From Deltaproteobacteria bacterium (GTDB lineage Bacteria; Myxococcota_A; UBA9160; SZUA-336): a stretch of 64,000 bases of DNA. This document shows positions 4,504-39,342 of this stretch, in pieces. Each line of letters starts with the position of its first letter. The first letter of the stretch is position 1. Location: contig JANNLG010000171.1 of NCBI GenBank assembly GCA_031396695.1, positions 6,053-70,052 of the forward strand, in the 5' to 3' direction. Position numbers and translations under genes: made by a program. Below the pieces are notes generated by a model, which saw only the letters and a program-made list of their open reading frames with translations, was not told the DNA's origin and ran no database searches.

Positions 4504-7500
4504 ATGAGCGCCACGCTGGGGACGGACCCGCCGCTCTGGGAGCGCTACACCCGAACGCACGGCCGCGTGCACCTGACGGGTCTGCAAGCGCTGCTGCGCA
4601 TGACGCTCGACCAGCTGCGCAGCGACGCGCGCGCAGGGCTGCGCACCGGCGCGTTCTTCTCCGGCTATCCGGGTTCTCCGCTCGCGGGGCTGGACGGAAT
4701 GCTGCGCAGCCTGGCGCCGCTGCTCGCGCGCTCGGACGTGCGGCTCGCGCCGGGTCTGAACGAAGAGCTCGCGGCCAGCGCGGTGGCGGGCACGCAGCTC
4801 GTCGAGACCTTCCCGCACGCCCGCTACAACGGCGTGCTCGGGGTCTGGTTCGGCAAGGCGCCCGGTCTCGATCGCGCGATCGACGCGCTGCGCCACGCCA
4901 ATTTCGTGGGCACCGGACGGCAGGGCGGTGCGCTGGCGGTCGTGGGCGACGATCCGTTCTGCAAGAGCTCGTCGCTGCCGAGCCACAGCGAGCACGCCTT
5001 CGCGCACGCCTACATTCCGTTGTTCGCGCCGGCCGACCCGGGCGACGTGCTGCGCCTCGGACGGCTGGCGTTCGCGCTCTCGCGCTACACCGGATTGTGG
5101 AGCGGACTGCGCATGGTGGCCGACGTGGCCGACTCGGGCCGGATCGTCACGCTCGCCGACGCTGAGCCCGCGCTCGTGCTGCCGGAGTTCGTGAATCCGG
5201 CCGGCCGGCCGGCTCGGCGCATCGACACGAATCTGCTGCCGCCGAACGTGCTGCGCATCGAGCAGGATCTGGTCTTCGGCAGACTCGAAGCCGTGCACCG
5301 CTTCGCGCGCGCGAACGGCTTGAATCCGATCACGTCGAAGCACGCGCGCGATCGCGTGGGCCTCGTCGCTTCGGGCTCGCTCTACCGCGAGCTCGAGAGC
5401 GCGCTCGCGCTGCTCGGCCTCGACGAGCCCGAGCGCGAGCGACTCGGCGTGCGGCTGCTCAAGCTCGACCTGGTCTGGCCGCTCGAGACCGAGCGCATGC
5501 GCGAGTTCGCATCCGGACTCGAGGCGATCGTGGTGGTGGACTCGCGCCGTGCCTGGCTCGAGGAGCAGGTGCGCGCGGCGTTGTACGAGGGCGGGTCGCG
5601 CGCGCGCGTGCTCGGCCAGCACGACGAGCGCGGCGCGGCCTGGCTCGCGCGCCGCCACGAGCTCACCGGCGGTACGCTCGCGCAGGATCTCGCGCCCTGG
5701 CTGGGCGAGAAGCTCGGCGAGCCGAAGCTGGTTTCTCGCCTCGCGCCGCTCGAAGCCGCGCTCGCGCGCGCGTCCCACGCGGCCGAACCGTCGCGCGCGC
5801 CGCACTTCTGCAGCGGCTGTCCGCACTCGTCGTCGACCAAGCTGCCCGAGGGCTCGCTCGCCGGCGGCGGCATCGGCTGTCACACCATGGCGCTGCTCAT
5901 GCCCGAGCGCGCAGTGCGGCTGCTCGGCGCGATGGGTTCGGAGGGTGCGCACTGGATCGGTCTCGCGCCCTACACCGAGACGCGACACCTGTTCCAGAAC
6001 CTGGGCGACGGCACCTACTTCCACTCCGGCCGGCTGGCGGTTCGCGCCTGCGTCGAGGCCGGTGCGACGATCACCTTCAAGCTGCTCTGGAACGGAGTCG
6101 TCGCGATGACCGGCGGCCAGCACGCCGTGGGCGCCAAGCCGCTCGCGGCGCTGGTGCGGGATCTGCTGGCCGACGGGGTGCTCTGCGTGGTGGCGATGAG
6201 CGACGACCGCGAGGTCGCCGCGCTCGAAACCTACGAGCCGCGTCTTCGGGTGGTGGACCGGAACGGCTGGGACGGCGCCATGCGCGAGCTGCGCGAGCAG
6301 AGTGGCGTCAGCGTCATGATCTGGGACGAGCTGTGCGCGAACGAGAAGCAGCGGCTCGAACGCCGCGGCGTGCTCGCTCGGCCGAGCGCGCGCGTGGTGA
6401 TCAACGAAGACGTGTGCGAGGGCTGCGGCGACTGCGGCGTCAAGTCTTCGTGCGTGTCGCTGCGGCCGGTCGAGACCGCGCTCGGCCGCAAGACGCGCGT
6501 GCACGCGGGCTCGTGCAGCGACGATCGCGCCTGCCTCGACGGGGACTGCCCGGCGTTCCTCTCGGTCGAGGGTGCGACGGCCGCAGCGCTGCCCTTCGAG
6601 TCCCTGCTGACGGGGCCGCTGCCCGAGCCGCCCGCGCCGATCTGGGACGGCGATCGCTACGAGCTGCAGCTGGTCGGCATCGGCAGCACGGGCGTGGTCA
6701 CGATCGACGCGCTGCTGGTGCGCGCCGCCGAGCACGACGGCTTGTACGCGATGCACCTCGACCAGACCGGCCTCGCGCAGCGCGGCGGCAAGGTCGTGTC
6801 GCACTGCGTGCTCGCGCGCACCGAACTGACGGGCAGCCCGCGCATCGAGCCGGGCCGCGCGGACGTGCTGCTCGCCTTCGATCCGCTCGGCTCCTCGGAT
6901 CGCGACGCACTGCGCGCGCTCGACCCGGGCCGCACGCGCGCGGTGGTGCACGAGCTGTACGTGCCGACCGGCGCCGACGTGGGCGCGCCCGGCTTCCAGC
7001 CGCCCGACCTCTCCTTGCTGATCGAGCCGCTGCGCGAAGCCACGCGCTCGCTCGAGCGCGTTCCCGCGGAGCTGCTCGCGGAAGTCGCGCTCGGCCAGTC
7101 GCTGTCGGCGAATCTGGTGCTGCTCGGCTTCGCCTGGCAGCGCGGACTCGTGCCGGTCTCGCGACTCGCGCTCGAACGCGCGGTGCGAGAGAACGGTGTC
7201 GCGGTCGAGGCCAACCTGCGCGCGATCGCGCTCGGCCGCGCGGCCGCGGTCGACGCGGAGCTGGTCGCGAAGCTCTTGCACGACGCGACTCCGCCGGCGA
7301 TCGGCGACGAGCCGGCGCTCGATCGCGCCGCGCGCGCGCTCGGTCCGGCCTGGAGCGCGGTGCACGAAGCGCTCGGCCGCTTCCAGCACGCGAAGGACTC
7401 CGATCGCGTCACTTCGCTGATCGCATCGTTCGCGGCCGATCTGGTCGACTACCAGGGCAAGCGGCTGGCGTCGCGCTACTGCGCGCGCGTCGCGCGCGTG

Positions 7501-8031: not shown

Positions 8032-8045
8032 GCTATCCTGCCGCC

Positions 8046-8264
8046 GTGTCGGAGTGGCTGCGAATCGCCCGCGAGCCGTCGGTCGTGCGACGTGCGTTTC
8101 GAACCATGCTCGTGGTCGGCGCGATCCTGATCGCCATCAATCACGGCGACGCGTTGCTCTCGGGTCAGCTCGACGCCGACCGCGTGTTCAAGATCTGCCT
8201 GACGTTGCTCGTCCCGTACGGCGTCTCGACCACCTCGAGCGTCGCCGCGCTGCGCTCGAGGTAA
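8046..8264 (+). CDS. nitrate/nitrite transporter NrtS-family small membrane protein
   Basis: GTG 8046, in frame with the tail of track ORF 6333..8264. The 72-aa product VSEWLRIAREPSVVRRAFRTMLVVGAILIAINHGDALLSGQ...LLVPYGVSTTSS matches the NrtS family pattern (INxGD, LVPY). Confidence 0.7.
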   Translation: MSEWLRIAREPSVVRRAFRTMLVVGAILIAINHGDALLSGQLDADRVFKICLTLLVPYGVSTTSSVAALRSR

Positions 8265-8272
8265 CGGGGCCC

Positions 8273-8294
8273 GGCGCGCGGACGGCCGCGCGCC
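8273..8294. terminator. GC-rich hairpin between convergent genes (possible bidirectional terminator)
   Basis: GGCGCGCGG-ACGG-CCGCGCGCC forms a perfect 9-bp stem. It lies between the nrtS-like stop (8264) and the stop of the minus-strand gene (8340). No U-tract is present. Confidence 0.4.
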
Positions 8295-8339
8295 ACCCGC
8301 ACTTCGCTCAGCTTCGCTTCGCTGCGCGCTTCGCTTGCG

Positions 8340-11605: not shown

Positions 11606-12043
11606 ATGAGAACCGCAATGACACGGCTCCTGTGTCGCTGCATGGGGATGTCGAGCCAGTGCGTCGCGGATCGGGTCCGCGAGCGCGGACTCGGCGACGT
11701 GGAGTCGATCGCCGCGAGCCTTGGCGCGGGTGGCTGCTGCGGAAGCTGTCGACCCGACCTCGAGGAGATCCTCGCCGACCTGCGCGGGGAGCCATTGCCC
11801 GAACCCGTGCGCCGCGCCAACCGCCTGCGCGGCGAGGCCGAGGCCTTCCGCCGCGTGGAAGCCGTGCTGTTCGGCAGCATCGTCGCGCGCCTGCCGCCGG
11901 GCACGGAGCTCGAGCTCGTTTCCGTATCCGGTTTGCGCGCGGAGCTGCACGTTGCGCACGGGGACTCACCGGAGCTGCGCACGCTGGTCGCCGAACGCCT
12001 GCAGAAGCTCGTCTGCGTCGAGCTCGAGGTGCAGTTCCGCTGA
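11606..12043 (+). CDS. (2Fe-2S)-binding BFD-like domain protein with C-terminal extension
   Basis: LLCRCMGMSSQCV...GAGGCCGSCRPDLEEIL is the BFD-like [2Fe-2S] four-Cys pattern. It is followed by a tail of about 80 aa. The start is ATG 11606 or ATG 11618. Confidence 0.7.
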   Translation: MRTAMTRLLCRCMGMSSQCVADRVRERGLGDVESIAASLGAGGCCGSCRPDLEEILADLRGEPLPEPVRRANRLRGEAEAFRRVEAVLFGSIVARLPPGTELELVSVSGLRAELHVAHGDSPELRTLVAERLQKLVCVELEVQFR

Positions 12044-12060: not shown

Positions 12061-12861
12061 ATGCGAGTCGAACGCATTCCGACGCTGCGCGACAACTACA
12101 CGTACCTGGTGATCGATCCGGCTTCGAACGAGGCGGCGGTGATCGACGCGCCGGAGGCCGCGCCGGTGATCGCGCGCGTCGCGAAGCTCGGGGTGCGCGT
12201 GACGAAGGTGATGTCGACGCACCACCACCTCGATCACAGCGGCGCGAATCCCGAGCTCGCCGCGCACTTCCGCGCGCCCGTGATCGGACACGCCTCCGAC
12301 GCCGCCCGCATTCCGGGCTTCACCACCGGCGTGGAGGAAGGCGAGCGCGTGCGCGTCGGCGCGCTCGAGGCCGACGTGCTGTTCATCCCGGCGCATACGC
12401 GCGGGCACGTCGCCTACGTGTTTCCCGGCGCCGTGTTCTGCGGTGACACGCTCTTCGCCGGCGGCTGCGGGCGGCTCTTCGAGGGCACCCCGCAGATGAT
12501 GCACGAGGCGCTGAACGTGAAGCTCGCGAAGCTCGCCGACGCGACGCTCGTCTACTGCGGGCACGAGTACACGGAGGCCAACCTGCGTTTCGCGCTCACG
12601 CTCGAGCCGGGCAACTCGGCGCTCGCCGCGCGCATCACGACGGTGAAGGCGCGCCGCGCGCACGCCGCGAGCGATTGGCACGACGCGACGGAGGCGGAGA
12701 TGACCGTGCCCTCGACGCTCGCCGACGAGCGCGCGACCAATCCGTTCATGCGTACGTCGGCGGCGGAGCTCGTCGCGAGCGTGCGCGCGCAGCTGCCCGG
12801 TACGTCGTCCGATCCCGTCAGCGTGCTCGGCGCGGTGCGCGCGCTGAAGGACAAGTTCTGA
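12061..12861 (+). CDS. gloB: hydroxyacylglutathione hydrolase (glyoxalase II)
   Basis: Full-length track ORF. The segments DNYTYLVID, the STHHHLDHSG metallo-beta-lactamase motif, GHEYT and NPFMR are typical of GloB. Confidence 0.9.
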   Translation: MRVERIPTLRDNYTYLVIDPASNEAAVIDAPEAAPVIARVAKLGVRVTKVMSTHHHLDHSGANPELAAHFRAPVIGHASDAARIPGFTTGVEEGERVRVGALEADVLFIPAHTRGHVAYVFPGAVFCGDTLFAGGCGRLFEGTPQMMHEALNVKLAKLADATLVYCGHEYTEANLRFALTLEPGNSALAARITTVKARRAHAASDWHDATEAEMTVPSTLADERATNPFMRTSAAELVASVRAQLPGTSSDPVSVLGAVRALKDKF

Positions 12862-13508
12862 GCGAGCGCTGCTCATTCCTCGGGCTGTTCGCGTTGCTCT
12901 TGCTCTTGCCGATCGGTGCGTCCGCGGATCTCGGCCATCGACCGGAAGATCGGGTCACGCTCACACACGTCGACAACCAGGTCATCGCCGTCACCGCGTC
13001 GGGCTTCGCGGCGGTGCTCTCGAAGCTCGAGCTCGGCGAGTCGGTGATCGCGCTGCGCAGTCAGGGCAACGTCGGCGTCGCGGTCACGACGCGGCGCCTG
13101 CTCGCGATCCAGACCCGCGCCGCCAATTTCGTCGAGCTGCGCTACCGCGTTTCCGAGTCCGCGCCGAGCGAGCACGACCTGCAGGTGCGCGACGGCCTGA
13201 TCGTCGCCGCGTTCCCGGCGCGGATCCTCGCCTTCTCGCCGCAGATCGCCGCCTGGCAGGAGTTCGGGCTCGGGCCAGGCGAGAAGCCGATCGAAGTGAT
13301 CGCCGAGCAGAACGTCGCGGTGGTCGTCACGCCGCGCCGCGCGGTCGCGTTCTCGCCGCTCTCCGCCGGCTTCGTGCCTTATCCGCTGACGCCCGGCGAG
13401 GATCCGGAACGCAGCACGCTCGGCGACGACTCGATCACGCTGATCCTTCCGCACCGGGTGCTGATCTTCCGCGCGGGCGACTCGGCCTGGTCGAGCGTCA
13501 ATCGCTGA
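12858..13508 (+). CDS. secreted hypothetical protein with about five internal repeats (start uncertain)
   Basis: Tail of track ORF 12675..13508. A signal-peptide-like N-terminus (L/M)SERCSFLGLFALLLLLPIGASA-DLG begins exactly at CTG 12858, which overlaps the gloB TGA. Alternative starts are TTG 12894, which would cut the signal peptide, or ATG 12675, which would overlap gloB by 187 nt. Confidence 0.6.
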   Translation: MSERCSFLGLFALLLLLPIGASADLGHRPEDRVTLTHVDNQVIAVTASGFAAVLSKLELGESVIALRSQGNVGVAVTTRRLLAIQTRAANFVELRYRVSESAPSEHDLQVRDGLIVAAFPARILAFSPQIAAWQEFGLGPGEKPIEVIAEQNVAVVVTPRRAVAFSPLSAGFVPYPLTPGEDPERSTLGDDSITLILPHRVLIFRAGDSAWSSVNR

Positions 13509-13530
13509 GATTTCCGAGCTGTCGAGGCGT

Positions 13531-13545
13531 TGACGATAACCGTCA
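13531..13545. promoter_or_regulatory. inverted repeat TGACG-N5-CGTCA (candidate enhancer-binding-protein site)
   Basis: Perfect 5+5 inverted repeat, TGACGATAACCGTCA. It lies about 120 bp upstream of the sigma-54-type promoter at 13654, within a non-coding gap. Confidence 0.3.
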
Positions 13546-13653
13546 CCGGACTGACGGATCTGGTCCACATCGGGCCCTGCAGCGAGGCCGCGACAGTGTC
13601 GCCAGGCTCGAATATCCGCGGACTTCGTCGCGTCTGGTGCGTATGGCATACGT

Positions 13654-13669
13654 TGGCACGCCTGATGCA
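13654..13669 (+). promoter_or_regulatory. sigma-54 (-24/-12) promoter candidate
   Basis: TGGCACGCCTGATGCA compared with the consensus TGGCACG-N4-TTGCW has correct GG/GC spacing and a single mismatch (ATGC for TTGC). It lies 37 nt upstream of ATG 13706. Confidence 0.5.
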
Positions 13670-13705
13670 AATCCTCAGGCTCGAAACAGAGGGGAGCATT
13701 TCGGC

Positions 13706-13930
13706 ATGGCACTGGTCGCGCACACGCTCAGGAATTTCGAGTCCGCGGAGCAGATCGCGGAGCCCGGCCACCCCGAGACGCTCACCCTGCTCGACCTTGT
13801 TTCTGCAATCGCGGACGAGGCCGAGACCGACGAAGAGGTCGTCGCCACGATCCAGCATCTGATCGAGACTGGAAAGGTCACCCTGGTCGGGAACTTCCGC
13901 TCGAACGACGTCGGCCGACGCAAGGACTGA
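13706..13930 (+). CDS. hypothetical small acidic protein (74 aa)
   Basis: ATG 13706 has GGGGAG 9 nt upstream. Product: MALVAHTLRNFESAEQIAEPGHPETLTLLDLVSAIADEAETDEEVVATIQHLIETGKVTLVGNFRSNDVGRRKD. Composition is non-shadow. No family recognised. Confidence 0.55.
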   Translation: MALVAHTLRNFESAEQIAEPGHPETLTLLDLVSAIADEAETDEEVVATIQHLIETGKVTLVGNFRSNDVGRRKD

Positions 13931-13943
13931 GCGCCGCTCAGAC

Positions 13944-15086
13944 CTACAGAGCCTTCGCCGCCTCTTCGAGCGCGACCACCACGTGATAGACGCTGGTCGC
14001 GTTCTGCGCGTCCGAGATCACGCGCCCGTCGCGCGCGAGCTGCTCGAACCAGCCGTGCGTCTTGGGATCGACGTGACGAGCGAAGCAGTAGCGCAAGCCG
14101 GCTTCCAGCTCGCGCCGCGCGATCGCGTCGCCCGTCGCCCGCGCGCGCGCGGCCAGCGCCTTGACGCGCTCGGTCTGCGGCCACAGTCGCTTGGTCACGG
14201 CGAGCGTCCGGCCCTCGGCGTCGATCTGGTCGAAGACTCCGCCGTCGGTGTCGACGCCCAAGCGGCGGCCGAACTCGAAGAGCCGATCGGACAGCGCGCG
14301 CGCCGCGTCGCTCGGCGCGAGCGACTGCAACCGATCGAGCAGCCAGACCCACTCGAAGTGATGCCCGGGCTCGACGATGCGCCCGGCATCGCCCGCGAGC
14401 GGCCGCCAGTGGGAGTCGAAGTGTTCGCCGAGCGCGCCCGTGCGCGCGTCGAGCCAGCGCGCGCCGAGCAGCTCCACGAGCGAGCGCGCGTCGCGCAGCG
14501 CGCCGCTGTCGGGCGCGACCTCGGCCAGCACCAGTAGCGCCTCGACCAAGTGCATGTGCGGGTTCTGTCGCCGCGGCCCCGCGAGCGGCTGCCAGTCCTC
14601 GCTCGCGGTCTCGAAGAAGCCACCCGAAACGGGATCGCGCAGCCGTTCGCGCAGGAGCTCGAGCGTCGCGCTCGCCAGCCGCAGGGACTCCGGCTCGCCG
14701 CTTGCCCGGTGGTGCTCGGCGAGCGCGAAGATCGCGAACGCATGCCCGTACAGATCCTTGCGTCGGTCGAGCGGCGCGCCCGCCTCGTCGGTGGTGGTGA
14801 ACCAACCGCCGAAGCGCGGGTCCCAGAAACGCGCGTGCAGGAACTCGAGTCCGTGCGCCACCGCGTTTCGCGCCCACGCGCCGGCGCCAAGTTCCGACGC
14901 GCGCGTGAACGCGAAGATCTGGCGCGCGTGGACCAGGAGTCGCTTGTGACCGTCGGGCAGCGGCGCCAGATCGGGTCCGAGCCGGTTCCAGTAGCCGCCG
15001 CGGTTGCGATCGAGACCGTGCCGTTCCCAGAGCGGCAGCAGCTCGTCGACCAGATGCGCGCGCAGCGTCAGGCGCGAGTGCTGCAT
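13944..15086 (-). CDS. AGE-family epimerase/isomerase (N-acylglucosamine 2-epimerase / mannose-6-P isomerase-like)
   Basis: ATG 15086 (MQHSRLTLRAHLVDELLPLWERHGLDRNRGGYW...). Shows the repeated (alpha/alpha)6-barrel pattern with KRLLVHARQIFAF, KDLYGHAFAIFALAE, NPHMHLVEALL, PGHHFEWVWLL and RLWPQTERVKA. Confidence 0.85.
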   Translation of the reverse strand: MQHSRLTLRAHLVDELLPLWERHGLDRNRGGYWNRLGPDLAPLPDGHKRLLVHARQIFAFTRASELGAGAWARNAVAHGLEFLHARFWDPRFGGWFTTTDEAGAPLDRRKDLYGHAFAIFALAEHHRASGEPESLRLASATLELLRERLRDPVSGGFFETASEDWQPLAGPRRQNPHMHLVEALLVLAEVAPDSGALRDARSLVELLGARWLDARTGALGEHFDSHWRPLAGDAGRIVEPGHHFEWVWLLDRLQSLAPSDAARALSDRLFEFGRRLGVDTDGGVFDQIDAEGRTLAVTKRLWPQTERVKALAARARATGDAIARRELEAGLRYCFARHVDPKTHGWFEQLARDGRVISDAQNATSVYHVVVALEEAAKAL

Positions 15087-15093
15087 CGCTCGC

Positions 15094-15435
15094 TCACGAC
15101 AGCGCGTCGGTGTAGGCCTCCGCGTTCCAACCGACCAGCAGCGTGTCGCCGACCACCAGCGCCGGCGCGCGCAGATTTCCGGTCGGCCCGAGGACGGCCT
15201 CGACGATCTCGTCGGGCGCTTTTCCGCCGGGCGTGAAGCTGCGCAGCGCTTTGCCTTTCGCCACGACAACGCGCCTCGCGGCCTTCACCAGCTTCGCGGC
15301 GTCGGCCTTGCCGAGCTTCTTGCTCGCAGAAACCGTCGCGACCGGCTCGATCTTCCTGGCGTCCAGAAACTTGGACGCTCGTTCGCAACTGGTTCAACCG
15401 TTGCGGTGGTAGTACCAGTCGATGCGCTTGGCCAT
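15094..15435 (-). CDS. ArsC/Spx/YffB-family protein with in-frame TGA at codon 14 (probable selenoprotein, U-x-x-C)
   Basis: ATG 15435 has GGAGG 9 nt upstream. The reading is MAKRIDWYYHRNG-[TGA 15396..15394]-TSCERASKFLDARKIEPV...AAKL, which runs in frame with no other stop into track ORF 15094..15288. The total is 113 codons, which is the family size. The TGA sits where the family has the first Cys of CxxC(R/K)KA..(F/W)L. A hairpin lies 15 nt downstream. Confidence 0.8.
15359..15378 (-). promoter_or_regulatory. SECIS-like stem-loop downstream of UGA
   Basis: The mRNA can form GCGUCCA-AGUUUC-UGGACGC, a perfect 7-bp stem with a 6-nt loop containing GU. It starts 15 nt after the UGA, so the loop falls about 22-28 nt downstream, within the range reported for bacterial SECIS elements. 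Confidence 0.6.
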
Positions 15436-15475: not shown

Positions 15476-15697
15476 TCAGGCGGGGACGGACTCCCCGCCC
15501 GCGAGACAGACGCTCGGGGCGCGCTGGCGGCGCTCGCCGTGGGTCTCGGCGAGCAGATCGTGCACCGTCTCGCGGCAGCCGCCGCAGCTCGAGCCCGCGC
15601 CGCACATCTCGGCGACCTGACAGGGCGTGCGAGCGCCCGCACGCGCGGCGTGCTGGATTTCGCGGTCGGTCACGGCGTGGCAGCTGCACACGATCAT
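15476..15697 (-). CDS. bfd: bacterioferritin-associated ferredoxin, (2Fe-2S)-binding
   Basis: ATG 15697. MIVCSCHAVTDREIQ...CQVAEMCGAGSSCGGCRETV is the canonical Bfd C-x-C...C-x2-C pattern. Product is 73 aa. Confidence 0.85.
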   Translation of the reverse strand: MIVCSCHAVTDREIQHAARAGARTPCQVAEMCGAGSSCGGCRETVHDLLAETHGERRQRAPSVCLAGGESVPA

Positions 15698-15718
15698 GAC
15701 CGACAGCCTACCTCGGAT

Positions 15719-15737
15719 GATAATGACAATCAATTAC
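15719..15737. promoter_or_regulatory. Fur-box-like operator
   Basis: GATAATGACAATCAATTAC matches 15 of 19 positions of the classical GATAATGATAATCATTATC. It lies in the AT-richest patch of the bfd/lemA divergent gap, 21 nt from the bfd start. Confidence 0.55.
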
Positions 15738-18242: not shown

Positions 18243-20585
18243 CTATCGGGGGGCCGAACGCCTGTCAACGCGAATGCCGAGCAAGCGCCGCATCAGCGCG
18301 CCGAGATCGGGGTCGGAGAACATGCCGAGTGTCTCGTAGACTCTCGCGAGGCGATCGCGCACGTCGCTCGAGCGCGGCGCGAGCGCGATCTCGCGCGCGC
18401 AGTCCGTCATCGCCGAGGCGTCGGTCCGGCGCACGACCTGGCGCAGCGCAAGCACCGAGAACGGCGCCATCGAGAGCTCCTCGATTCCCATGCCGATCAA
18501 GAGCGGCGCCACGACCGGATTGCCGCCGAGTTCCCCGCACAGCGAGCACGGGATGCCGGCCGCGCGCGCCGCATCGACGCTGCGCTGGATCTCGGACAGC
18601 ACACCGGGATGGAACGGATCGTAGATCCCGGCCACGCGCTCGTTCTCGCGGTCGGTGGCGAGCGTGTACTGCATCAGATCGTTGGTGCCGATCGAGAAGA
18701 AGTCGGAGCGCGCGGCCAGGTGCTGCGCGATCGCGACCGCGGCGGGCGTCTCGATCATGACACCGAGCGGTGGCATGGCCGCGCCGAGCTCCGCGCAGAC
18801 CGCCAGCAGGTGCTCGCGCGCCGCCTCGAGCTCGTCCACCGACGCGATCATCGGCAGCATGATGCGCAGGTTGCCGGTGCCGTTCGCGCGCACGATCGCG
18901 CGCAGCTGTGCGCGAAACAGCTCGGGCCGGTCGAGCAGGATGCGGATCGCGCGCCAGCCGAGCTGCGGGTTCGCCTCTTCGATCGACTCGCCGGACAGCG
19001 CCTTGTCGCCGCCCAGATCGAAGCAGCGGATCACCACCGGGTCGGGGGCGATCTGCGTCGCCACGCGCAGGTACGCGCGCTGCTGCTCGTCCTCTTCGGG
19101 CACGCCGCGCGAGCCGAGCGCGAACACCTCCGTGCGCAACAAGCCGATGCCTTCCGCGCCGTAGCGCTTCACCAGATCGACGTCGGAGAGTCCGCCGACG
19201 TTGGCCGAGAGGCGGATCTTGCGGCCGTCGCGCGTCTCGCTCGGCAGGCCGCGCAGCTCGTCGAGCCGTCCGCGCGTCTTGCGATAGCGCCCGGAGATCA
19301 CCGTGTACTCGGCTCGCTGTGCGCGCGTGGGCGCCGCGATCACCACACCCTCGAGCCCGTCGACGATCACCTCGTCTTCGGGTCGCAGCCGCGCCGCGAT
19401 GCGCGCCACGCCGGAGACGGCCGGGATCTCGAGCGAGCGCGCGAAGATCGCGGAGTGACTGGTCGGCCCGCCGTGCTCCGTCACCAGCCCCGCGATCTTC
19501 TCGGTTTCGAGCAGCACGAACTCGCTCGGCGCGATCGCCGACGCGACCACGATCACGCCGTTGCGCAGCGGCGGATTGTGCAGTCGCACGCCGAGCAGCT
19601 CGCCGACCGCGCGCTGCAACACGTCCTCGACGTCGGCGGCGCGCTCGCGCACGGTCGCGTCGGGCGTCGCGGCGAAAATCGCCGCGTAGCCCTGCATGGT
19701 CTCCACCAGCGCGCGCGCGCCGTTGCCGTGCAAATCGACGCCGCGGCGCAGCTTGGCGCGAAAGCCCTGGTCTTCGAGGATCATGATGTGGGTGGTGAAG
19801 ACGTCTGCGAGCTCCTCGCCGAAGCGCTCGCCGACGCTCCCGCGCAGGTCGTTCAGCTGGCGCACGGTTTCGCGCAACGCGCGCTGCACGGCGCGGAACT
19901 CCGCCGCAGGCGTGCGCGCCGGCTCGTAGTCGATCGCACCCAGATCGAGCCGCGGCGCGATCAGGTGCACACGTCCGCGCGCGATGCCCGGTGAATTGCC
20001 GTTGCCGCGCAGCACCGTGCCGCGCGCGAGCGGCTCGGGCGCGCTGGCGGCGAAGCGTCTACCCGGAGCGCTCTCGCGCAGCGCGCGATCGAGCAGCCGC
20101 GCGTTGAGCACGATTGAGCCCACCTGCGCCGCGATCATCTCGAGCAGCTCGAGCTGCTCGGGCGGGAACACGCGCACGCGCGCGGTGCGCGCGGTCAGCA
20201 CACCGACCGGCTCGCCGCGCACCAGCAGCGGCACCGCCACCAGCGAGCGGAAGCGCTGCTCGCCCGAGAACGACACGGTCTGCACGCGTGTGTCGAGTCG
20301 AACGTCCGGCACCGCGATCGTCTCGCGCTGCTGCAGCGCGCGGCCCGCGATGCCCTGGCCGAGCCGGATGCGCACGCGCCCGACGGCCTGCGGGTTCAGG
20401 CCGCGCGTCGCGCGCAGCACCAACGTCTCGCCGTCCTCTTCGAGCACGTAGATCGAGCACGCCGAGGCGTGCATCCAGCGCGCGACCAGACGCACGACGT
20501 TTTCGAGCGTCTCCGCGAGGTCGTGACTGCGCGTGAGCAGCCGGCCGACGTCGCGCAGAAAGTTCGCGGATGCGCCTCGAGGCAT
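18243..20585 (-). CDS. ptsP: phosphoenolpyruvate-protein phosphotransferase with N-terminal GAF domain (EI-Ntr type)
   Basis: Full-length 780-aa ORF. An N-terminal GAF region is followed by EI motifs (GGPTSHSAIFARSLEIPAV, FFSIGTNDLMQY, CGE). Confidence 0.9.
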   Translation of the reverse strand: MPRGASANFLRDVGRLLTRSHDLAETLENVVRLVARWMHASACSIYVLEEDGETLVLRATRGLNPQAVGRVRIRLGQGIAGRALQQRETIAVPDVRLDTRVQTVSFSGEQRFRSLVAVPLLVRGEPVGVLTARTARVRVFPPEQLELLEMIAAQVGSIVLNARLLDRALRESAPGRRFAASAPEPLARGTVLRGNGNSPGIARGRVHLIAPRLDLGAIDYEPARTPAAEFRAVQRALRETVRQLNDLRGSVGERFGEELADVFTTHIMILEDQGFRAKLRRGVDLHGNGARALVETMQGYAAIFAATPDATVRERAADVEDVLQRAVGELLGVRLHNPPLRNGVIVVASAIAPSEFVLLETEKIAGLVTEHGGPTSHSAIFARSLEIPAVSGVARIAARLRPEDEVIVDGLEGVVIAAPTRAQRAEYTVISGRYRKTRGRLDELRGLPSETRDGRKIRLSANVGGLSDVDLVKRYGAEGIGLLRTEVFALGSRGVPEEDEQQRAYLRVATQIAPDPVVIRCFDLGGDKALSGESIEEANPQLGWRAIRILLDRPELFRAQLRAIVRANGTGNLRIMLPMIASVDELEAAREHLLAVCAELGAAMPPLGVMIETPAAVAIAQHLAARSDFFSIGTNDLMQYTLATDRENERVAGIYDPFHPGVLSEIQRSVDAARAAGIPCSLCGELGGNPVVAPLLIGMGIEELSMAPFSVLALRQVVRRTDASAMTDCAREIALAPRSSDVRDRLARVYETLGMFSDPDLGALMRRLLGIRVDRRSAPR

Positions 20586-34187: not shown

Positions 34188-34775
34188 CTAGTTTTGAGCC
34201 GGCAGATCCTCCGGCCGATTCAGATTCCGCAAACTCGCGAGCTCGGGATCGAGCGCGCGCAGGTCGGCTTCGGGGACGAAGACCGTGTTCAGGTCGCGCA
34301 GCAGCGCTTGCAGCGCGAGCTCGCCGCGCGCGATGCGGCGCTCGAGCTCGGGCAGGATGCGCGGGCGGTAGACGGCGAGCAGCGGCTCGGGGCCGCGTGG
34401 GCCGAGCGGCGCGACCACGTCGGCGCCGCCCTCCGTGGACACCAGCGCGAGCAGCGCGAGCAGCACGCGCGGGTCGATGTCGGGCAGATCGCATGCGGCT
34501 ACTAGCACGGCGCTCGACTCGCAGGCGGCCAGCGCCGCCGCGATGCCGACCAATGGCGCGCGCTCGGCGTGGCGGTCGACGATGCACTCGAGACCGAGCT
34601 CGGGCAGCTCGTCGGGTCGCGCCACGAAGCGCACGCGCTCCAGACACGCGCCGAGCGCGGCCGCGACGCGCGTGGCGAGCGGCGCGCCCTGATAGTGGAG
34701 CGTCGCCTTGTCGCGACCCATGCGCGTGGAGCTGCCGCCGACCAGCACCGCGCCTTCGACGTGCGAGAGCTTCAA
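34188..34775 (-). CDS. mobA: molybdenum cofactor guanylyltransferase
   Basis: TTG 34775 forms a TTGA overlap with the moeA stop. The segments GAVLVGGSSTRMGRDKA and VAACDLP are MobA motifs. Confidence 0.8.
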   Translation of the reverse strand: MKLSHVEGAVLVGGSSTRMGRDKATLHYQGAPLATRVAAALGACLERVRFVARPDELPELGLECIVDRHAERAPLVGIAAALAACESSAVLVAACDLPDIDPRVLLALLALVSTEGGADVVAPLGPRGPEPLLAVYRPRILPELERRIARGELALQALLRDLNTVFVPEADLRALDPELASLRNLNRPEDLPAQN

Positions 34776-36028
34776 AACCCGGGCTCGGTCTGCAGATCGT
34801 CGGAGTGGAGCAGCTGCACGGGCACTCGCGCGCCGGCTTCGACGCGGGTCGTGTCCTCGGCCACGAAGGCGAGCCCGTCGGCGCGCACCATCGAGAGCAG
34901 GATGTTCGAGCCCTGCGCGCCGGTCTCGCGCGCGTGCAGCTCGCCTGCCCGGCGCTCGAGCGTGACGCGCACGAAGTGCGCGCGGCCCTTGGGCTTGTCG
35001 TAGGCCTCATCGAGCACGGCCGACTCCACCGCACGGTACACACGTGTGTGTCCCATCATGCGCAGCAGACACGGCCGCACGAACTGCTCGAAGGTGACCA
35101 GCGTCGAGACGGGATTCCCGGGCAGGCCGAACACGGGCCGCTCGCCGATCGTCACGAACGCGAGCGGCGCACCCGGCTTCATGCGGATGCGCCAGAGCCG
35201 CAGGTTTCCGCCCAGACCCGCGAGCACCTGCTTGATCCAGTCGCGGTCACCGACCGAGACGCCGCCGGTCGAGATCACCGCGTCGCAGGCGAGCGCCGCG
35301 CGGAACTGGGCTTCGATCGGGTCGGGCTCGTCGGGGGCGATGCCCAGGTACACGGGCTCGGCGCCGATCTCGCGCAGGCCCGCGCACAGCGCGTACGAGT
35401 TCGAGCTGGCGATGCGGCCGTCCGCGCGCAGGCGGTCGGGCTCGACCAGCTCGTCGCCGGTCGCGAGCACCGCCACGCGCGGCCGCGCGCGCACCGAGAC
35501 CTGCGTGCGTCCGAGCGCGGCGAGCATGCCGACCAACGGCGCGCGCAGGATGTCGCCGGGTGATGCGACCAACACCCCGGGGTGTACGTCCGAGCCCGCG
35601 CGACGGATGTGCTGGCCGAGCTTCGGCGCGCTGCGCACGCGCACCTGCTCGCCCTCGACCGCGGTGTCTTCGACCATCACCACCGCGTCGGCGCCGGCGG
35701 GAATCGCGGCGCCGGTCATGATCCGCGCCGCCTCGCCCGCCCCGATCGCGCGCTGGCTGCGCTTGCCCGCGGGCAGGTCGTCGACGACGCGCAGCAGCGA
35801 CGGCGCGCGGACGGCGTCGGCGGCGCGCAGCGCGTAGCCGTCCATCGCGGAGTTGTCCTCGGGCGGGATCAGCACTCCGGCGTGGATCTGCTCGGCCAGC
35901 ACGCGTCCGGTCGCGCGCTCCAGCCCGAGGGTCTCGCGCCCGAGCGCGGGGGCCGAGCCGAGGATCAACTCGCGCGCCTCCGCGACGCTCACCGTCGACC
36001 GCTCCGCCTCGCCCTTGGCCTCGCGCAT
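34772..36028 (-). CDS. moeA: molybdopterin molybdotransferase
   Basis: ATG 36028 with GGAGGGG upstream. The segments NSAMDGYALRAAD, TGAAIPAGADAVV, STGGVSVGDRD, MKPGAPLAF and GLPGNPVS match MoeA. Confidence 0.9.
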   Translation of the reverse strand: MREAKGEAERSTVSVAEARELILGSAPALGRETLGLERATGRVLAEQIHAGVLIPPEDNSAMDGYALRAADAVRAPSLLRVVDDLPAGKRSQRAIGAGEAARIMTGAAIPAGADAVVMVEDTAVEGEQVRVRSAPKLGQHIRRAGSDVHPGVLVASPGDILRAPLVGMLAALGRTQVSVRARPRVAVLATGDELVEPDRLRADGRIASSNSYALCAGLREIGAEPVYLGIAPDEPDPIEAQFRAALACDAVISTGGVSVGDRDWIKQVLAGLGGNLRLWRIRMKPGAPLAFVTIGERPVFGLPGNPVSTLVTFEQFVRPCLLRMMGHTRVYRAVESAVLDEAYDKPKGRAHFVRVTLERRAGELHARETGAQGSNILLSMVRADGLAFVAEDTTRVEAGARVPVQLLHSDDLQTEPGF

Positions 36029-36104
36029 CACCCCTCCGCGGGCTAGTCTGCCCAAAACTTAGGCAGATCGCCCTGCGATCGCCGCGGCGTGAGCATGCAC
36101 CGGT

Positions 36105-36137: not shown

Positions 36138-37219
36138 ATGAAAGAAACCCTCGAGCGCATCGACGACATCCTCGGATCGCTCCGCGTGGGGATCCTCGCG
36201 ATCGATGCGGACGGCCGGGTCGAGCTCGAGAACCCCGAGGCGAGCCGGATCCTGGGCCAGTCGATCGTGGCCGCGGTCGGCCGCCCGCTCCACCAGGTGC
36301 TCGGCCGCCAGCACCCCGCGAGCGCCCTGCTCGAGACCGCGCTGCGCGAAGGCCGGGCGGTTTCGGAGCACGGCTGCCTAGTGCCCGATCGGATGGGTGG
36401 CCGGCCGCTGGTGGTCGATCTGTCCGCGGCCCCGATCGGACGCGGCAGCGAGGTGCACGGCGCCGTGCTCTCGCTCAGCGACCGCACGATCGGCGTCGAG
36501 CTCGAGGACCTGCTCGGCCAGCGCGCGCGCTCCGAGCTGTTCGCGCAGCTCGCGGCCGGCATCGCGCACGAGCTGCGCAACCCGCTGTCCGGCATTCGCG
36601 GCGCGGCCGACCTGCTGCTGGGCAAGCTCCCCGAGTCGAGCCTCGCGCGCTACCCCGAGCTGATCCGCGCGGAAGTCGATCGCATGCGTCGGCTGCTCGA
36701 CGACCTGGCCGAGCTCACACGCGGCGGCGACCTGCGCCCGCGCCGCGCCAACCTGCACCGCGTGATCGACGACGTGGTCGAGCTGCACAGCCACTCCGAG
36801 ACGTGGCAGGGCATCAAGATCGAACGCAGCTACGACCCGAGCATTCCCGAGTTCGAGTTCGACCCCGACCGCACCACGCAAGTGCTGTTGAACCTGATGC
36901 GCAACGCGGTGCAAGCGATGGCGGGCAGCGGCACGCTCACGCTGCGCACGCGCATCGAGTCGGCGTACCACTTCGAACACGTCGGGCCCGAGCGCGCACG
37001 GCTCGTGCGCATCGACATCCAGGACACCGGCCCCGGCATTCCCGACGAGGACCTGCCGCTCCTGTTCACGCCGTTCTTCACGCGCCGCAGCTCCGGCACC
37101 GGGCTCGGTCTGGCCGTCGCTCAAGCCTGGACCGTGAAGCAGGGCGGGCGGATCCTGGTGCGCAGCCGCGCCGGAGAAGGAACACGCATGCGTGTAGAGC
37201 TGCCCCTCCGGAAGCCGAC

Positions 37220-37223
<4 letters not shown>
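36138..37223 (+). CDS. PAS-domain sensor histidine kinase (NtrB-like)
   Basis: Full-length track ORF. A PAS-like N-terminus is followed by the H-box AAGIAHELRNPLSGI and the N/G boxes (LLNLMRNAVQA, DTGPGI, GTGLGL). Confidence 0.85.
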
Positions 37224-38685
<1,462 letters not shown>

Positions 38686-38689
<4 letters not shown>

Positions 38690-39342
38690 CGGTTGCCGGG
38701 CTCGAGCGCGTGCAGGGTGTGTACGCGCTCGTGGACGACGACCCGCGCTGGCGCAACCATCCGCGCGCGCAGCTCGCGGGCGCGCTCGCGGGCGGCTCGA
38801 CCGTGATCCAGCTTCGGCTCAAGCACCAAGGCGACGGCGCGACGCTCGCACTCGCGCGCGAGGCGGTCGTCCACACGCGCGCGGCTGGCGCGCTGCTGTT
38901 CGTGAACGACCGTTTCGATCTGGCGCTGCTGGCGGGCGCGGACGGCGTGCACCTGGGGCAGGACGACCTCGCGCCGGAGGGGATCCCGGCCGACGCGCGC
39001 GCGCGGCTCCTGGTCGGGCTCTCGACCCACACGCTCGAGCAGGTGCGCGCGAGCCGCGCCAGGCCTGTCGACTACGTCGCGTTCGGGCCGGTCTACGGCA
39101 CGCGCTCGAAGGCATCGGAGTTCTCGCCGCGCGGGCTCGCGCTTCTGTGCGAGGCCGTCGCGCTGGCCGAGCGGCCGCTGGTCGCGATCGGCGGAATCAC
39201 GGCCGAAAACGCCGCGGACGTCCGCGCTGCGGGCGCCGTCGCGATCGCCGTGATCTCGGCCATCGCCGACGCGAGCGACCCGGCCGAGGCGACGCGTTAC
39301 CTTCGGGCGCGCTTTCTGGCCTCGCCCCCCGGGAGAAACTAG
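38686..39342 (+). CDS. thiE: thiamine phosphate synthase
   Basis: GTGA overlap with the regulator stop. The segments VYALVDD, VIQLRLK, LFVNDRFDLALLAGADGVHLGQDD, DYVAFGPVYGT and LVAIGGI match ThiE. Confidence 0.85.

Follow-up and report, generated by a model that had tools for sequence, protein, structure and literature searches.

The intergenic gap described here most probably carries an enhancer-dependent sigma-54 promoter for a monocistronic gene, which encodes a protein of 74 amino acids, and from comparative sequence analysis we put the probability of this reading at about 85%. The gap lies within a 64-kb stretch of DNA that was analysed as a whole (the window). Sigma-54 promoters always require an activator, whose binding sites are typically located about 100 nt or more upstream (PMC4641369, PMC12316311), and the Myxococcota are reported to be rich in activators of this type (PMC12316311). 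The features of the locus are given below, with coordinates counted along the window and negative positions counted from the predicted transcription start.

13520-13524, + strand: lone half-site, TGTCG in the window and degenerate compared with the family cGACG, 11 bp before palindrome 1
13529-13547, + strand: palindrome 1, GTTGACG-ATAAC-CGTCACC, centre at 13538, about -142
13551-13568, + strand: palindrome 2, CTGACGG-ATCTG-GTCCAC, centre at 13559, about -121, right arm degenerate
13590-13602, + strand: clade-specific inverted repeat GCGACAGTGTCGC, about -90 to -78
13607-13625, + strand: conserved middle block CTCGAATATCCGCGGACTT, about -73 to -55
13638-13640, + strand: conserved TGC, -42 to -40, shortly before the -24 element
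13653-13670, + strand: putative sigma-54 promoter TTGGCACG-CCTG-ATGCAA, GG at -25/-24 and GC at -13/-12
13680, + strand: predicted transcription start, placed from sigma-54 promoter spacing
13688-13696, + strand: ribosome-binding site AGAGGGGAG
13706-13930, + strand: conserved small-protein gene, 74 aa, ATG at 13706
13927-13941, no strand assigned: perfect palindrome CTGAGCG-C-CGCTCAG with 7-bp arms, spanning the 13-nt gap between convergent stop codons

The gap extends from 13509 to 13705 and separates two genes on the + strand. The upstream neighbour encodes a protein of 222 amino acids and ends with a TGA stop codon at 13506-13508. An earlier note on this DNA had described the gap as less GC-rich than its surroundings, which agrees with a G+C content of 61% in the gap against 71% in the whole window; its count of 35 G+C residues in 13621-13680 was exact on recount. 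The note also called it the largest gap that has no convincing ORF. A crude GC3 coding map proved too insensitive to establish this rank and left other candidates, such as 8032-8339, beside it. An Rfam scan of 12800-14300 at E ≤ 1 identified no RNA family, and neither a sigma-70-type promoter nor a terminator was found in a scan of 13300-14100.

Downstream of the small ORF is a gene of the N-acylglucosamine-2-epimerase family (13944-15269). As this gene is convergent, the promoter can serve the small ORF (13706-13930) only. The enhancer region starts 12 nt past the stop codon of the 222-aa gene, and read-through transcription from that gene is therefore possible. The palindrome at 13927-13941 forms a 6-bp hairpin in the minimum-energy fold; it has no T-run and was not called by the terminator scan, and we regard it as a possible bidirectional terminator hairpin. 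Two separate small genes for BFD-like [2Fe-2S] domains flank the locus, at 11606-12043 (+) and 15476-15733 (-), and both keep their syntenic position across the 51 related loci described below. The frame of the small ORF is also free of stop codons for 1080 nt (12848-13930, +), running across the upstream gene and the intergenic region with no start codon until a GTG at 13637. This long open frame is an artefact of high GC content that could mislead gene callers into predicting a false long ORF.

The 74-aa ORF is, to judge from its homologues, a real and conserved gene. These comprise 59 clusters, all of them from metagenome-assembled genomes classified as Myxococcota or as 'delta-proteobacterial'. 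When aligned, they begin with M-x-x-V-A at the position of the ATG at 13706, and conservation is strong in the core of the protein. The alternative GTG start at 13637 was rejected, as the extension that it implies is unsupported by the homologues. In close relatives, GAGGGGAGC is kept 9-17 nt ahead of the ATG.

The sigma-54 match reported earlier, TGGCACGCCTGATGCA at 13654-13669 on the + strand, is present and reads TGGCACG-CCTG-ATGCA. Its GG (13655-56) and GC (13667-68) dinucleotides have the canonical spacing, exactly 10 nt apart, and the element points toward the small ORF, whose ATG is 52 nt away. The one mismatch to TGGCACG-N4-TTGCW that had been noted is indeed the only one, an A in place of T at about -15, and this A is the conserved state in relatives (family consensus ATGCTT). 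With at most one mismatch allowed, the sigma-54 pattern occurs once in the window against 0.40 matches expected, and 32 of 100 shuffled sequences contain at least one; with up to two mismatches there are 10 matches against 8.1 expected. On the evidence of the window alone, the promoter match is statistically not significant. A matrix derived from the conserved sites gives 27 bits at the locus and 9.8 bits at the next best position in the window, and at a threshold of 14 bits it found no further match in the 229 kb covered by the 51 loci. In sigma-54 promoters, 11-12 nt usually separate the GC of the -12 element from +1, and for this reason the start is predicted at 13680, which implies a leader of 26 nt.

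The perfect inverted repeat to which the earlier note drew attention, TGACGATAACCGTCA at 13531-13545 (+), is likewise found and reads TGACG-ATAAC-CGTCA. Its distance from the promoter, given there as about 120 bp, is 123 bp start-to-start in the window. The inverted repeat itself stands, but it is not a single site: a second palindrome follows it in tandem, with its centre 21 bp, or two helical turns, further on. One exact copy of this palindrome is found in the window, where 0.04 would be expected, and four of 100 shuffled sequences have one.

Footprints of conservation were built from 43 non-identical orthologous sequences. In these, the arms of palindrome 1 are nearly invariant and its 5-nt spacer is free, and palindrome 2 is conserved in register as CTGACGg...CG.CCaC. 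The UAS-anchored footprint also has raised information at cGaCG, 11 nt ahead of TTGACG. The consensus for the enhancer is cGaCG-N5-GTTGACGA..a.CGTCACC-g.g-CTGACGga.c.CG.CCaC. Invariant half-sites combined with free spacers point to recognition of the DNA by a protein. The putative UAS consists of two inverted repeats, at about -142 and -121 with 21 bp between their centres, and of one more half-site that precedes them by 11 bp.

This composite element is confined to a single position in the DNA that was searched. A 42-nt enhancer matrix scores 63 bits at the locus and at most about -7 bits elsewhere in the window, once the reverse-strand image of this palindromic site and an overlapping hit of -7.1 are excluded as the same site. 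With a matrix for the single palindrome and a threshold of 18 bits, the 229 kb of the 51 loci yielded no further match, and a search of the 64-kb window for other members of a regulon, using the enhancer and promoter matrices together with the one for the single palindrome, yielded no second site. The literature searched for the motif returned nothing relevant, or papers on eukaryotic CRE/bZIP sites only; TGACG-N5-CGTCA is absent from the sigma-54 literature searched, a paper on the sigma-54 regulome of Desulfovibrio included.

The evidence that carries the assignment comes from related loci. Scans of genome and metagenome collections provided 51 loci, from about 50 uncultured Myxococcota genomes, and 48 of them have enough upstream DNA for comparison. 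The metagenome-assembled genomes with the locus include JBBDXF01, CAVPHD01, JBIOJK01, DATJZN01, CAVPRM01 and DATJZP01. They are orthologous by gene order, while the identity of the 222-aa protein falls to 46-54%. The order that is kept consists of genes for a PD-(D/E)XK nuclease-like protein and a BFD-like protein, gloB, the 222-aa gene and the small ORF, then the epimerase gene (-), the second BFD-like gene (-) and a LemA-like gene. Conservation of the motif pair upstream of small-ORF orthologues had been suggested as a check of the original proposal, and the outcome is clearly positive in all 48 loci and in the window. The sequence TTGGCACG-N4-(A/G)TGC(T/A) precedes the small ORF in 48 of 48 loci, and in each of 49 sequences (the 48 loci plus the window) GTTGACG-N5-CGTCAC precedes the -24 element by 120-124 bp; for L009 the value is 123 bp if the first of its promoter matches is taken. 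The distance from promoter to ATG drifts between 35 and 126 nt across the loci, whereas the spacing between enhancer and promoter stays fixed. Even a distant relative in which the upstream protein is only 38% identical (L056) carries the same palindrome-promoter pair at 123 bp. In the promoter footprint, information is high only at TTGGCACG and ATGCTT, giving the consensus TTGGCACG-N4-ATGCTt, and intergenic columns outside the motifs are without information and contain indels. What is established directly is which sequence elements are present, how they are oriented, and that they are conserved at a fixed spacing.

Several other intergenic elements were noted. The TGC at -42 to -40 has high information in all three columns of the footprint. 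The middle block has the footprint 'tc..a..t.cg..ga.tT' in a promoter-anchored, gapless alignment, in which the TT at -56/-55 is almost invariant. An (A)ATC lies upstream in this block, and its spacing shifts by 1 nt between clades, the clade of the window having one extra base. The consensus for IHF is WATCAANNNNTTR; the middle block matches it in part, in ATC...TT only, with the central AA unmatched. We consider the block a candidate site for an architectural (IHF-like) protein or for a second regulator. Between it and the enhancer, about 40 columns have near-zero information and contain indels.

The inverted repeat GCGACAGTGTCGC is found only in close relatives of the window (L001, L002, L014-L016 and L022) and, as partial copies, in L010 and L018-L021. 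The distant clades lack it, and it may be the site of a second regulator specific to this clade. In clades with long leaders of 70-95 nt (L003-L047), a hairpin with compensatory changes was seen by eye in the 5′ UTR, its pairs being CGCTCA/TGAGCG, CGCTCG/CGAGCG and CGCTCC/GGAGCG. RNAalifold on 14 sequences returned 0 consensus pairs and thus gave this candidate no support; the 26-nt leader of the window does not have the hairpin.

We considered three other explanations for these data. In the one that survives best, the sigma-54 promoter is genuine and the palindromes serve as operator for an ordinary transcription factor that is no enhancer-binding protein; this factor could repress, counteract activation or regulate the upstream gene, and the enhancer would be located elsewhere or be absent altogether. 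An operator of this kind would suit a site that directly follows the stop codon of the upstream gene, that has an activator gene adjacent to it in no locus and that is unlike any activator site in the literature searched. Nevertheless, we judge this explanation to be unlikely. In all 49 cases, and in L056 as well, the palindrome stays 120-124 bp away from the -24 element while other distances drift, and a distance kept so constant argues for joint action of site and promoter. A tandem pair of dimer sites at -121 and -142, separated by 21 bp, has, moreover, the classical geometry of an enhancer, and no other conserved palindrome exists upstream, so that the promoter would otherwise be left without one.

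A much less probable explanation is that the palindromes act as RNA, either as a terminator or as a stabilizing 3′ hairpin for the mRNA of the 222-aa gene. The palindromes start 12-25 nt past the upstream stop codon and could form 6-bp hairpins, but their arms are invariant and show no compensatory changes while the loops vary, which is the pattern of DNA recognized by protein. The predicted fold of 13505-13600 has a z-score of -0.99, with 35 of 200 shuffled sequences folding equally well, and palindrome 1 is unused in the minimum-energy fold. There is also neither a T-run nor a terminator call. Furthermore, five loci of distant clades in which the 222-aa gene is undetected (L007, L008, L041, L049 and L051) still have the palindromes at an unchanged distance from the promoter. 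An RNA element in the enhancer region was rejected, as its folding is not better than that of shuffled sequences.

Conservation through recent common ancestry alone, combined with a chance sigma-54 match in GC-rich DNA, could be entertained since 0.40 such matches are expected in the window and the 51 loci are without exception syntenic orthologues belonging to a single lineage, but this least probable explanation is effectively refuted by comparative data in which the intergenic columns outside the motifs are fully randomized and contain indels, the upstream protein is down to 38-54% identity in far clades, and five of eight distant family loci in unrelated contexts have sigma-54-type promoters against a background of about 0.005 per 150 nt.

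The preferred reading, an enhancer-dependent sigma-54 promoter, calls for a cognate activator and for sigma-54 itself. The NtrC-family activator that had been reported at 37220-38689 is encoded there, with REC, Sigma54_activat and HTH_8 domains and a GAFTGA motif, and the EI-Ntr (ptsP) assignment corresponds to a ptsP-like gene with GAF and EI domains at 18243-20585 (-). The NtrC-like gene adjoins a PAS-HisKA kinase gene (36138-37223), and the resulting NtrB/NtrC-like pair (36138-38689) sits between moeA (34772-36055, -) and thiE (38686-39342). Both proteins score just below the NCBIfam equivalog cut-offs, the NtrC-like protein with 522 bits against the 558.6 bits of TIGR01818 (ntrC), and we describe the latter as NtrC-like, a similarity assignment that stops short of naming it an NtrC equivalog. 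The hint that this protein might act at the palindromes gained no support: its gene is 24 kb away, and nothing found in this analysis ties the protein to the site. A matrix scan of the region upstream of the NtrB/NtrC-like operon found no match to the palindrome, and the site TTGACG-N5-CGTCAC fails to match the NtrC site TGCACC-N5-GGTGCA.

No other candidate for the activator is encoded close to the small gene. The NtrC-like gene is the only ORF with a GAFTGA motif in the window; no such ORF is found within 3 kb on either side of the small gene in the 51 orthologous loci, and no true activator gene within 6 kb on either side in 10 contexts of distant family members. No ORF with an RpoN box is present within the 64-kb window. 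Activators bearing GAFTGA work only with sigma-54, and because the window encodes one of them, we infer that the genome contains rpoN and that the organism uses sigma-54.

From the established elements we further infer, on the model of other promoters of this class, a sequence of binding, looping and activation that would depend on both sigma-54 and an activator. RNA polymerase carrying sigma-54 would sit on TTGGCACG-N4-ATGCA (13653-13670) as a closed complex. Dimers of a bacterial enhancer-binding protein would occupy the two tandem palindromes of the TGACG-N5-CGTCA type on the same face of the helix, and the bound activator would build an ATPase ring. The DNA between enhancer and promoter would then loop and bring the ring to the polymerase, probably with the aid of a protein bound at the block from -73 to -55. 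Hydrolysis of ATP would open the promoter, and transcription would begin near 13680, producing an mRNA with a 26-nt leader and a strong ribosome-binding site followed by the small ORF.

The protein under this predicted control belongs to a large family. A full HMM search at E ≤ 0.001 found at least 936 representatives (clustered at 50% identity) and an indexed search found 2848 clusters. Nearly all members are 60-100 aa in length, and they share the motif TLLDLV-x-AV...D-x-EVVATV..L..SGRV-x-L-x-GNFRG. The 74-aa protein has no sequence match in Pfam, NCBIfam or the PDB and no paralogue in the window. Its AlphaFold model is of moderate quality (pLDDT 67, with 80-86 in the core), and a Foldseek search of this model against the PDB gave nothing at E ≤ 0.001. 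The resemblance of the protein to a winged helix is weak.

Among distant members of the family, a sigma-54-type promoter anchored by GG and GC is located 30-65 nt upstream of the gene in five of the eight loci with DNA; background matches to this pattern number about 6 in 175 kb, which corresponds to some 0.005 for each 150-nt region. In three of 10 distant contexts, the small gene is directly upstream of, and co-directional with, the genes for topoisomerase VI B and A (L052, 6001-9298; L056, 6001-9296; and a JGI contig from sample 3300042731), with gaps of 58, 349 and 64 nt. In L052 and L056 the small gene is also behind a sigma-54-type promoter. No topoisomerase VI gene is present in the window. 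These arrangements suggest a possible functional link between the small gene and topoisomerase VI. A different upstream repeat, GACCGAA(A/T)nnnCGTCAC, was observed in two or three copies at distant family members that have sigma-54-type promoters, in L052 (about 5800-5860) and L059 (about 120-190). The CGTCAC half-site is common to this repeat and the palindromes, a hint of a related activator that uses another spacing. Taken as a whole, the family may represent a widespread small protein that is switched by sigma-54 under a new activator specificity, defined by tandem TGACG-N5-CGTCA, and that is perhaps DNA-binding or linked to DNA topology; we propose this only tentatively and think it rather doubtful.

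The analysis provides a high-confidence regulatory annotation, in which the promoter is joined by a pair of activator sites, a probable site for an architectural protein and a predicted start, in a lineage known from metagenomes only. Tandem TGACG-N5-CGTCA at a rigid distance of 123 bp is a motif with which scans of whole genomes could identify the regulon and the cognate activator. A large unannotated family of small proteins is also brought to notice, with expression apparently tied to sigma-54 in several lineages, and the promoter at this locus may, though with less probability, be one instance of a broader association between sigma-54 and this family. For the locus itself, the picture is of a well-supported but ordinary gene switch that adds nothing mechanistically new on sigma-54 promoters.

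Three groups of known systems bear comparison with this arrangement. The developmental sigma-54 promoters of Myxococcus xanthus include those of the Nla6, Nla28, MrpB and ActB regulons. The likeness is that of a common phylum with wide use of sigma-54 and many activators, whereas the lineage described here is known from metagenome-assembled genomes only. We know of no motif from these M. xanthus regulons that resembles TGACG-N5-CGTCA.

The nifH promoter, which depends on NifA and IHF, and the Pu promoter, which depends on XylR and IHF, have an enhancer at about -120 to -150, an element midway and a -24/-12 promoter. The same three-part layout and the same tightly fixed spacing between enhancer and promoter are found at our locus. 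The middle block differs in matching the IHF consensus only in ATC...TT, so that a role for IHF here is a guess. For Desulfovibrio, sigma-54 orp promoters that depend on IHF have been reported (PMC3897727).

The third comparison is with glnAp2, and here again the locus has the corresponding parts, namely a -24/-12 sigma-54 promoter and two palindromes of the 6-N5-6 type more than 100 bp upstream. In the enteric glnAp2 system, two strong sites for NtrC dimers lie more than 100 bp upstream of the -24/-12 promoter, the activator oligomerizes and the DNA loops; the enteric NtrC site is TGCACC-N5-GGTGCA, and the glnAp2 sites are about 32 bp apart. The locus departs from glnAp2 in its recognition sequence, which is TGACG-N5-CGTCA in place of TGCACC-N5-GGTGCA, and in the spacing of its sites, which is 21 bp in place of about 32 bp. 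The targets are also distinct: glnAp2 serves a nitrogen-assimilation gene, whereas the promoter described here would serve an orphan gene of 74 amino acids.
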